64,000 bases of DNA from Pyrinomonadaceae bacterium (GCA_014534425.1 JACVRN010000003.1:11391-75390), one strand, 5' to 3'. Numbered from the stretch's first letter, positions 37,012 through 49,351 are shown. Notes: generated from the sequence alone by a model not told the origin. Made by a program: numbers and translations.

Positions 37012-37902
37012 CTAGCGGAGTGGGGACAGGCGGCGGCGGTCTTCACGCTTTTCTGCCTGGCGGCGGCGCAGTTGATACCACTTGGGCGGCTCGCTCTCAG
37101 GCTCAAGCAGGCGCTGGATTCTGGCTATGGTGCGGCGCGCGGCCTCTTCGCCTGCGGCTATAAGCTCGTCTGCGCGCTTCATCTCGTCCCAGCGAATGTG
37201 GCCCACGCGCGGGCGTACGACTATGTCCGCGTCCTGAAGTTGCAGAACCGAGACCGTGCGCTGCACCACCATCATGGATTGAAAGATGACGCCGATGGCG
37301 GATTGCGGCGGCCCCAGAAATTTAGCGCCTTCTGCGTTAACGTCCACGGCTATGACTATGTCTGCGCCGAGCGAGCGGGCGGCGGCGGCAGGCACGTTGG
37401 CTACAAGCCCGCCGTCAACAAGCTGCCGACCGTGATCGTCCGTGACGGGCACGTACCAGCCGGGGATTGTGCAACTGGCGCGTATGGCAAACGGCACGTC
37501 GCCTTCGCCCGACAGAACGACGGCCTCGCCCGAATGAAGGTCTGTGGCGACAGCCGCGAACGGAATACGCATCTCTTCAAAGCGTGTGACGGGAAGATAT
37601 TTTCTAAGAAAATCTTCCATCCGCGCGTTGGATTGAACGCCGAGCCTTGAGAGCGTCATGCGACCCATGTCGCGCCAGCGAAGCGAACGACTGAGTTTCT
37701 CAATCTCTCCTAAACTCATGCCTGCGGCGAGCGCCCCGCCTGCAATCGAGCCTGCCGATGTGCCCGCCACGAAATCGACGGGGATGTTATTCTCGGCCAG
37801 AACCTTCAGCACCCCTACGTGCGCTATCCCGCGAGCAGCGCCGCCTGAGAGCGCCAGCCCCACCCTCTGCCTTTCCGGTTGTTCCACTCGCCTACGCCAC
37901 AT
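37012..37902 (-). CDS. Patatin-like phospholipase
   Basis: GGAARG (oxyanion hole), GTSAGS (GxSxG) and DGG (catalytic Asp). Confidence 0.85.
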   Translation of the reverse strand: MWRRRVEQPERQRVGLALSGGAARGIAHVGVLKVLAENNIPVDFVAGTSAGSIAGGALAAGMSLGEIEKLSRSLRWRDMGRMTLSRLGVQSNARMEDFLRKYLPVTRFEEMRIPFAAVATDLHSGEAVVLSGEGDVPFAIRASCTIPGWYVPVTDDHGRQLVDGGLVANVPAAAARSLGADIVIAVDVNAEGAKFLGPPQSAIGVIFQSMMVVQRTVSVLQLQDADIVVRPRVGHIRWDEMKRADELIAAGEEAARRTIARIQRLLEPESEPPKWYQLRRRQAEKREDRRRLSPLR

Positions 37903-37905
37903 AAA

Positions 37906-37950
37906 AGAGTCTAGAGAGTCCTGAGAGTCTTGAGAGTCTAGAGAGAGTCT
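37906..37950. repeat. Family-D arm (GAGAGTCT-type repeats), left arm of the hairpin enclosing the four-helix-bundle gene
   Basis: AGTCTAGAGAGTCCTGAGAGTCTTGAGAGTCTAGAGAG matches the reverse complement of 38322-38360 at about 34/38. Confidence 0.8.
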
Positions 37951-38318
37951 CTTCTGGAGATATTCAAATGCTTTCCCAGTGCCAGAGTCATGCGCGAAAC
38001 TTCATCGAGTAAAGTGTAAAGTTCATTAAAGGAATTTTGATCGATATAGTTTAAGTCTAAAGCTATATATAAATGCGATTGAACTTCAGCTACCGAGCCA
38101 TGAGACATGTTAAGAAAATTTGCGAACTCTTTGTCTGAACGCCTGCCGAGACCTTCTGCAATATTAGCCATTATAGAAACACTCGCGCGTCGAATCTGGT
38201 CTCGAAGCCCATAATCTTTAGCAAAATTTCCTTCTTCAGTAATCTTATAAACTCTGCACGTCACCTGCCGCGCCTTTTGGCATGCTTGTATATCTTCAAA
38301 TCTTTTGAAAGCGGCCAT
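37938..38318 (-). CDS. Four-helix-bundle protein (23S rRNA intervening-sequence protein family)
   Basis: DYGLRDQIRRASVSIMANIAEGLGRRSDKEFANFLNMSHGSVAEVQSHL is the family hallmark. Confidence 0.85.
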   Translation of the reverse strand: MAAFKRFEDIQACQKARQVTCRVYKITEEGNFAKDYGLRDQIRRASVSIMANIAEGLGRRSDKEFANFLNMSHGSVAEVQSHLYIALDLNYIDQNSFNELYTLLDEVSRMTLALGKHLNISRRDSL

Positions 38319-38362
38319 CTTCTCTCCAGACTCTCTGGACTCTCAAGACTCTCTAGACTGTT
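38319..38362. repeat. Family-D arm, right arm of the hairpin enclosing the four-helix-bundle gene
   Basis: CTCTCCAGACTCTCTGGACTCTCAAGACTCTCTAGACTG. This arm contains the gene's GGAGA ribosome-binding site. Confidence 0.8.
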
Positions 38363-38366
38363 TTTA

Positions 38367-39053
38367 TTATACAGGATTAAGAATGGTAATTTCTGCGCGT
38401 TCGCGTGCGGTGTCCAGGAAGGAGGTGGTTTCGGATTCTATCTTGTCTTCGGTGAGTTGGGCTTCGAGTTGTTTGCTTACCTGCTCGAAGGTGGGGACGA
38501 TGCGGCCAGGGTACTGGCGTTGAAAGCGGGGCGTGTAAACGTCGCGGTAATAATCCGAGACCTCTTTGGGCGTGATGACCGTGAAGGAGCGGAAGCGAAA
38601 GTCCAGGTACTTATCTATGGCCACGCGCTGTCGTATGATTTCGCGCAACTGTTCGCTGGTTAAGCCTACGCGCTGCACGCGCTCCATGAAATCGGCGCGC
38701 GATGGGAAGAGCGAAATCAGCGCGGCCAGCGCATCCGAGATTTCTTTGTCCGTAGGGTTAATGGTCGGGAGCTTTTCCGCCTCTTGGTAGATTAGACGCT
38801 GGTTGATGATGAGTTGCAGCGCGCGGTTCAAGGCTTCAGAGTTTGGATTGTCGACCGGCGTGTTGGGCTGAAGCGCCATCTGCCAGAGCAGGTCTGAGTA
38901 AGTAATCAGGTCTGTTCGCACGCCGCCGTTGACGGTCGCAACCATCTTATCAACGACCTCCTGCGCCTGAGAGCTTGAGGCTGAAAGAAGAAGAAGGAGC
39001 GACACCAGTAAGCACCGCGTTAATCTGCCGGATTTAATCTCATTCCTACTCAT
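38367..39053 (-). CDS. SurA N-terminal-domain chaperone-like protein (no PPIase domain seen)
   Basis: Signal peptide. MVATVNGG...ITYSDLLWQ resembles the SurA_N pattern. Confidence 0.6.
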   Translation of the reverse strand: MSRNEIKSGRLTRCLLVSLLLLLSASSSQAQEVVDKMVATVNGGVRTDLITYSDLLWQMALQPNTPVDNPNSEALNRALQLIINQRLIYQEAEKLPTINPTDKEISDALAALISLFPSRADFMERVQRVGLTSEQLREIIRQRVAIDKYLDFRFRSFTVITPKEVSDYYRDVYTPRFQRQYPGRIVPTFEQVSKQLEAQLTEDKIESETTSFLDTARERAEITILNPV

Positions 39054-49280: not shown

Positions 49281-49351
49281 AAATTAACAGGATGGACAGG
49301 ATAAAGAAAAAGAAACTCTTTCTCTTTTTATCCTGTCCATCCTGTTAATTT
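49281..49351. repeat. Family-C hairpin (near-perfect palindrome)
   Basis: AAATTAACAGGATGGACAGGATAAAGA ... TTTATCCTGTCCATCCTGTTAATTT. It abuts the stop codon of the gene at 49350. Confidence 0.9.

Follow-up and report, generated by a model that had tools for sequence, protein, structure and literature searches.

A four-helix-bundle gene between inverted nonamer arms is the gene-bearing copy of a dispersed intergenic hairpin family in a Pyrinomonadaceae bacterium

Results

The cassette between the surA-like and patatin genes

The window, by which we mean the whole 64,000-nt stretch of DNA analyzed here, is contig C198 of the draft genome G000 (5.4 Mb, 90% complete). Two of its genes, encoding a SurA-like chaperone and a patatin-like phospholipase, are separated by a 462-bp cassette that consists of a small four-helix-bundle gene and two inverted arms (Table 1), and all three genes are co-directional. 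The stop codon of the surA-like gene (38367-38369) is separated from the cassette by 2 nt and the patatin ATG (37902-37900) adjoins the 3′ arm without a gap, so the cassette occupies the entire spacer.

Table 1. Coordinates of the cassette and its neighbors in the window
Feature	Position	Strand
Upstream host gene, SurA-N-domain-like periplasmic chaperone	38367-39053	minus
Whole cassette, arms and gene	37903-38364	minus
5′ arm (coding strand): A-run, then four GAGAGTCYN nonamers; holds GGAG	38321-38364	minus
PF05635/TIGR02436 four-helix-bundle gene (23S rRNA IVS protein family), intact, 126 aa	37938-38318	minus
3′ arm: four complementary nonamers, then T-run; overlaps the gene's last codons and stop	37903-37946	minus
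Downstream host gene, patatin-like phospholipase	37012-37902	minus

An inverted-repeat search returned arms of 44 nt each that are 89% complementary and 374 nt apart, each composed of four tandem 9-nt GAGAGTCYN units. A 16-nt double-unit pattern has eight matches in the 64-kb window, all of them at the cassette, against a chance expectation of 0.13. The preliminary description of this DNA had placed a gene of the 23S rRNA intervening sequence (IVS) protein family in the loop of an intergenic hairpin, with one arm containing its ribosome-binding site and the other arm its stop codon, and both statements hold: the gene is intact, GGAG (38324-38327) lies inside the 5′ arm, and the final codons with the TAG stop (37938-37940) lie inside the 3′ arm. 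The hairpin itself was recovered when a 491-nt transcript was folded in silico: the outer stem was present in the minimum-energy structure as well as in the centroid structure (−153 kcal/mol, z −5.2), and none of 100 shuffled transcripts matched the native fold. The description needs correcting on one point: no second hairpin with GAGAGTCT arms was found in the window, and all 52 copies without a gene are on other parts of the genome.

A contig from an independent metagenome run bridges the patatin/arm/gene junction with zero differences. The locus was found only in soil metagenome DNA runs, and two metatranscriptome runs of the same study placed no reads on it. Joints in metagenome reads that were considered as an excised form of the cassette turned out to be other bare hairpins of the family. 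No promoter-like site was found in the cassette by a promoter scan and no intrinsic terminator, that is, a short GC-rich stem followed by a T-run, was found in 37600-38700, where the cassette stem measures ~40 bp with a 374-nt loop. An Rfam scan of the element gave no rRNA or other match, and no transposase was found within the cassette.

The four-helix-bundle protein and its paralogue

The 126-aa protein matches PF05635 (E 9e-38, 129.2 bits against a cut-off of 33.8, model positions 1-104 of 106) and TIGR02436 (E 1e-35, 122.2 bits, cut-off 24). Its nearest solved structures by sequence match are 2GSC (E 6e-14) and 2RLD (E 7e-4), which are uncharacterized proteins with five chains per deposit. 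Identity with Avd, the accessory protein of diversity-generating retroelements (DGRs), was considered and rejected: matches to Avd models are weak (PF22296, E 0.006; NF033474, 19.5 bits with a cut-off of 80) and the neighbors are the surA-like and patatin genes, with no reverse transcriptase. The protein is under purifying selection, with pN of 0.12-0.20 vs pS of 0.75-0.97. Its gene is AT-rich (GC 40.7% vs 56.7% for the genome), and GC falls below that of the flanks in 108 of 109 PF05635 genes. The function of the "23S rRNA IVS protein" family PF05635 was called unknown or uncharacterized in papers of 2016 and 2024 (PMC4990558, PMC11270868).

The nearest homologue, 81% identical, sits at a hemE/hemH junction in another genus between short arms of the GAGTCT type. 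At that locus (L050:1440-1880 in G012) the arms encode the final five codons of hemE with its stop as well as the first codons of hemH, so that here the arms have become coding sequence of the neighboring genes. This matters for annotation, as arms can provide stop codons, start codons and terminal residues of the genes next to them.

G000 holds only two PF05635 genes. The second (C196:11602-11882) is frameshifted and lies between inverted GCTGANN heptamer arms; both genes are thus armed, each with the unit of a resident family of bare hairpins. The C196 cassette (C196:11553-11967) is a 415-nt block that is missing with exact boundaries from all five congeners (G001-G005), in which the insertion point consists of 6 nt between an upstream stop and a downstream ATG of co-directional genes.

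The nonamer hairpin family and other hairpins of G000

About 53 hairpins with GAGAGTCYN arms are present in G000, 52 of them gene-less with loops of 13-24 nt and only the cassette with a long loop. The cassette is therefore the sole gene-bearing member of a palindromic intergenic family of ~53 copies. Bare loops have the general form GAGAG, a purine-rich run, 4-8 nt, TTGA and CTCTC. Their origin as simple internal deletions of the cassette was considered and rejected, the purine-rich start GAGAGAAGA common to both being too short to count; AACGAG turns up again toward the 3′ inner end of the cassette in G005, another match too short to count. Among 48 hairpins with a classified junction, 39 lie between co-directional genes, where they are wedged between a stop codon and A-run on one side and a T-run and start codon on the other, and nine lie between convergent or divergent genes.

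These arrangements bear on the explanation, which builds on the RNase III processing site proposed in the preliminary description, that the hairpin is selected at the mRNA level. RNase III would cut the 40-bp stem, so that the four-helix-bundle mRNA is freed and the surA-like message is split from the patatin message, in the manner of 23S rRNA IVSs. The stem predicted in both folds (z −5.2), an RNase III gene in the genome (C39:15751-16152) and the co-orientation of the cassette with an operon on which it imposes no promoter of its own are consistent with it, as is the Coxiella IVS with the same gene family, whose 28-bp stem is cut by RNase III (PMC4990558). However, in 66 hairpins at co-directional junctions, sense-strand stem mismatches of the G-U type (51) are about as frequent as those of the A-C type (48), so pairing is not tuned to the mRNA strand. 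The asymmetric bare loops are oriented 11:11 with respect to transcription, which argues against a selected function at the RNA level, and the nine hairpins between convergent or divergent genes argue against RNA processing. Selection for processing also leaves unexplained the links of the arm unit to the protein lineage and of family size to the gene that are described below, and we consider it unlikely.

The census of G000, which counted strictly periodic tandem-unit hairpins, found at least 99 hairpins of other units (CAGTTTT, GCTGANN, GGATTTT, the 8-mer CATTGATT, GGGACTT and others), and less periodic families come on top of these. Several of the families have no cognate PF05635 gene. Three further features were noted in passing. 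At C3:4278-4829, two complete hairpins of 8-nt CATTGATT-type units flank a thioesterase-like gene whose frame has an internal stop. At C108:1785-2305, a 156-aa gene, ureidoglycolate-lyase-like by eye, lies between inverted GCTGANN heptamer arrays and would be a non-PF05635 gene in the same type of bracket. A nested palindrome with an outer module AAATTAACAGG and inner GGATRGA-type units occurs at C196:14885-15000 and in the window at 49281-49351, with many copies in G002 and G004.

Arms and protein lineage across the class

PF05635 is present in 27 of 31 related genomes of this acidobacterial class. We call a gene armed when its flanking inverted-repeat score is 13 or more, and by this measure 95 of the 111 PF05635 genes in the 27 relatives (86%) are armed, compared with 4 of 1500 random positions; a score of 20 or more is reached by 68 of the 111 genes and by none of the 1500 positions. 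Armed genes at co-directional junctions are oriented in the sense direction in 63 cases and antisense in three. The preliminary description had looked to other paralogues for such arms, and the C196 gene with its GCTGANN arms agrees with it. The suspicion that an ordinary small gene lies between two unrelated repeats by chance, or through an assembly artefact, can be set aside as extremely improbable, given these counts (95/111 vs 4/1500), the same layout at the same locus in G005 and the independent contig that spans the junction.

The 83 armed and intact genes in the protein tree have repeat periods of 7 (68 genes), 8 (10 genes) or 9 (5 genes), and clades of the tree have a common arm unit and period. 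Arm similarity to the nearest protein neighbor in another genus is 0.76 compared with a background of 0.52, the period equals that of this neighbor in 77 of 83 cases, and none of 500 permutations reached the observed correlation of arms with protein. Paralogues within one genome have an arm similarity of 0.53, no higher than background. By these sequence comparisons, the arm unit tracks the protein lineage and not the host genome.

Hairpin copy number and the cognate gene

Family size was compared in the six genomes of the genus by counting hits to the arm patterns on both strands (Table 2). The median is 162 hits in the nine family-by-genome cells with a cognate gene vs 11 in the fifteen cells without, a difference of about 15-fold (Mann-Whitney p 3e-5; 0 of 20000 within-family permutations reach the observed value), to be read with the fact that the genomes are related and the cells not independent. 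Within the genus, hairpin families are large in genomes that also carry a gene with matching arms; in genomes lacking such a gene they are small or decayed. This relationship is correlative and drawn from related genomes. The same correlation could arise if a larger family were simply likelier to include a gene-bearing copy.

Table 2. Number of hits to each arm pattern, both strands counted, in the six genomes of the genus; "gene" marks a PF05635 gene with those arms
Family	G000	G001	G002	G003	G004	G005
GAGAGTCYN (nonamer)	157 (gene)	189	0	5	2	162 (gene with stop)
GCAGARTGATGAAT	17	28	226 (gene)	20	136 (gene)	176 (gene)
AGTCCCA	70	24	11	23	616 (gene)	225 (gene)
GGTGYCGG	1	42 (gene)	0	3	0	112 (gene with stop)

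Outside the genus, the AGGACTG family shows a similar pattern, with ~1500 hits in G025, 12 in G023 and 7 in G018, all three of which carry an AGGACTG-armed gene, and 0-3 hits in the other genomes. In G025 (8.3 Mb) the ~1500 hits, counted for three tandem AGGACTG units, amount to hundreds of hairpins, and the AGGACTG-armed PF05635 gene is at L069; the same genome has a GGGAGTCTK nonamer family together with a gene in GGGAGTCTK arms (L071).

Strict dependence of the hairpins on a resident PF05635 gene was rejected. It fits G026, which has no PF05635 gene and no hairpins in 400 kb, but not G008, which has no hit to PF05635 or to a Y1 transposase, yet 20 very uniform GGTGATR hairpins in 280 kb (L199-L218). 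G001 likewise has 189 nonamer arm hits yet no nonamer-armed gene. Fragmented short-read assemblies can miss a gene that lies between high-copy repeats, so the absences of genes from G001 and G008 are soft.

Presence, absence and turnover among congeners

Both G000 and G005 carry the surA-like/patatin cassette. G001, G002 and G003 lack it and have a spacer of 15-24 nt at this junction. The orthologous cassette of G005 (L005:2186-2650) has well-formed arms and a gene that is 86% identical, with an in-frame TAA near codon 28. A tree of 39.8 kb of syntenic DNA separates G000 and G005 from G002 and the pair G001 and G003 with 100% support, so a single gain or a single loss of the cassette is enough. 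Congeners either have the whole block of gene and arms or lack all of it. No target-site duplication was found at three exact filled/empty junctions, and the sole regularity at the compared junctions is that the insert begins immediately after TAA. A miniature inverted-repeat element (MITE) or insertion sequence was rejected for want of a target-site duplication at these three junctions and of a transposase in the element, and a RAYT or IS200-type enzyme was rejected as the mover because the Y1/RAYT transposase profile (PF01797) had no match in G000, G001, G003 or G008.

In distant relatives, the surA-like/patatin junction holds gene-less hairpins built from other units (GGGATGA, CAGATGT, TTTTCAG, CAGGAGG and CATTTGA), in keeping with the bare hairpin that the preliminary description had anticipated at this locus in relatives. 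That description had named unarmed paralogues and a lack of gene-less hairpins at orthologous junctions as observations that would tell against it; neither applies, since the second paralogue is armed and such hairpins occur.

One unit-like stretch remains at each of the empty sites L007 and L008 (surA-like/patatin) and L281 (C229:7603), namely GTCTGGA in G001, TCTCTCTGGA in G003 and AGAGTCT in G002. These stretches are too short to test, and they are suggestive of excision footprints or of unit-like targets.

Genes can be disrupted while their arms are retained, as stops or frameshifts are present in several other armed genes of relatives. We also traced seven nonamer sites of G000 in the congeners. 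A nonamer hairpin is found at all seven in G001 and at four in G005, where the remaining three hold hairpins of GGTGYCGG, AGTCCCA and GCTGANN-type heptad units; G005 holds armed genes for the GGTGYCGG and AGTCCCA families. G002 has no nonamer family, and of its six sites that were read three are empty, two have hairpins of the GCAGARTGATGAAT type, which is the unit of G002's own armed gene, and one has a lone GCTGANN-type heptad array. In G003, where a profile search gave no PF05635 match, the six readable sites comprise five decayed nonamer hairpins and one lone heptad array with stem scores of 6-13, compared with 18-32 for G000, G001 and G005 over the seven sites. The sister genome G001, in which the hairpins are intact, is 92% identical to G003 over the 39.8-kb syntenic alignment. 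In several comparable cases the loops at traced sites are inverted between species. Orthologous hairpin sites persist across species that are 80-92% identical over the 39.8 kb of aligned syntenic DNA, and the sites are occupied by different families.

Persistence of this kind would fit a host function of the site, and with it the explanation that the hairpins are host or REP-like elements, either retained because they aid termination or stabilize mRNA or else mobilized by another enzyme, and that the four-helix-bundle genes lodged in their loops are cargo that renders the hairpins no service. The dense hairpin family of G008 with no PF05635 hit, the nonamer hairpins of G001 that lack a cognate gene, the gene-less families of G000 and the non-PF05635 gene between inverted arrays on C108 would be expected if this were so. 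It is hard to reconcile, however, with arm units and periods that match the protein tree across genera while paralogues of the same genome have unlike arms, or with families ~15-fold larger where the cognate gene is present. The other enzyme would not be a Y1/RAYT transposase in G000, G001, G003 or G008, and cargo would not readily account for arms that stay when genes are lost by stop codon or frameshift, nor for gene-plus-arms blocks that are gained or lost together. On balance we regard mere carriage of the gene as improbable.

Discussion

We read the cassette as an IVS-like, gene-bearing member of a REPIN-like hairpin population whose protein probably acts in trans on its own repeat unit, a reading to which we give a probability of roughly 0.55. 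Since the gene lineage, the arm unit and the number of hairpins vary together, the protein is expected to bind the repeat unit of its own arms. The sequence data suggest that gene and hairpins form a partnership like that of REPINs and RAYTs with a different, uncharacterized protein. The cassette would then be to mRNA junctions what ORF-bearing intervening sequences are to 23S rRNA.

A possible course of events can be outlined. The four-helix-bundle gene would be expressed by read-through from the host operon, as the 63:3 sense bias and the lack of a detected promoter or terminator suggest, and ribosomes completing the upstream gene probably unfold the stem and thereby expose the ribosome-binding site. 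The probable target of the protein, in trans, is nucleic acid that bears its own repeat unit; this may be DNA or RNA, with DNA the likelier. Such action would keep the hairpin population intact or growing, as RAYT does for REPINs, by other chemistry. The ~40-bp stem of the transcript is very probably an RNase III substrate too, which would be a consequence and not the selected function.

The preliminary description took hairpin and gene for a transposable or homing unit and this stands in part. Hairpin and gene do behave as one unit, as seen from the presence or absence of whole blocks and from arms that track the protein, but no transposase, homing enzyme or target-site duplication was found, so the terms transposable or homing are drawn from the pattern and not from a mechanism. 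To our knowledge, no catalytic activity is known for PF05635, nor do we know of an enzyme for the movement of such elements.

A more general and more tentative proposal, which we would not hold as probable as the reading of the cassette itself, is that PF05635 proteins are the trans partners of a second, RAYT-independent class of REPIN-like elements. Each protein lineage would recognize its own 7-9-nt unit and maintain the junction hairpins, with the cassette as the master copy, and the ORF-bearing IVSs of 23S rRNA would be the same elements landed in rRNA. If true, a single kind of element would take in rRNA intervening sequences, inverted heptamer arrays and gene-junction cassettes, and there would be a second example, with another protein, of a long-lived partnership between a REPIN-type repeat population and a single-copy gene. 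PF05635 is a large family and the question of its function becomes testable; the tandem-heptamer hairpins that occur in many bacterial genomes have no explanation either. In the searchable literature we found no paper that connects either inverted tandem-unit arms or dispersed hairpins with PF05635 genes located outside rRNA.

Several known systems share some of these properties. Avd, the accessory protein of DGRs, binds nucleic acid and a partner enzyme. The cassette protein belongs to a homologous four-helix-bundle fold family, of which the non-DGR members 2GSC and 2RLD hold five chains, but it scores far under the 80-bit cut-off and is flanked by chaperone-like and phospholipase genes, with no reverse transcriptase or variable target gene. 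The Correia elements of Neisseria give RNA hairpins that are cut by RNase III, and such MITEs resemble the cassette as short inverted-repeat elements that are co-transcribed with neighboring genes. MITEs are, however, bordered by target-site duplications and descend from insertion sequences that encode a transposase, neither of which was seen for the cassette.

The inverted heptamer arrays of Xanthomonas and Nostoc (Rehm et al., 2015; PMC4692102) and the cyanobacterial STRR repeats are also tandem heptamers, often in convergent pairs capable of forming a stem-loop. Most of the Xanthomonas and Nostoc arrays are found between co-directional genes, no more than 50 bp from a gene end, and about four units are preferred (PMC4692102), as in the families described here. 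They have been read as G-quadruplex formers, without a link to a gene family (PMC4692102), whereas the units of the cassette family are not G-tracts.

REPINs, as described in the REPIN-RAYT system of Bertels and Rainey, are extragenic palindromes of ~100 nt in tens to hundreds of copies (PMC3116915; bioRxiv 10.1101/2021.07.10.451892). The family of the cassette is likewise a dispersed family of extragenic palindromic sequences, with 53 copies, and both systems have a usually single cognate gene flanked by an inverted repeat, families specific to gene lineages, long-lasting orthologous sites and a population that is larger with the gene and decays after its loss. The differences are that the partner in the cassette is a four-helix bundle and not an HUH (Y1) transposase, that the arms are tandem arrays of 7-9-nt units and not a single REP palindrome, and that the gene lies inside one element and not between two.

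The closest likeness in layout is to the ORF-bearing 23S rRNA IVSs of Leptospira and Coxiella burnetii. The cassette differs from these in lying in mRNA between protein-coding genes, here surA-like and patatin, and not in helix 25 or 45 of 23S rRNA, and in belonging to a dispersed family of ~53 hairpins; moreover, RNase III cleavage is demonstrated for the IVS and predicted for the cassette. The IVS of C. burnetii that encodes S23p has a 28-bp stem and GACAGAT heptamers directly upstream of the ATG (PMC4990558). In the cassette, similarly, terminal inverted repeats form a long stem, of ~40 bp, around a PF05635 ORF in the loop, and tandem repeats, here nonamers, stand ahead of the ATG with the ribosome-binding site next to or within them. 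Mobility has been proposed for both kinds of element, no enzyme being known for either, and both carry the same family of four-helix-bundle gene.
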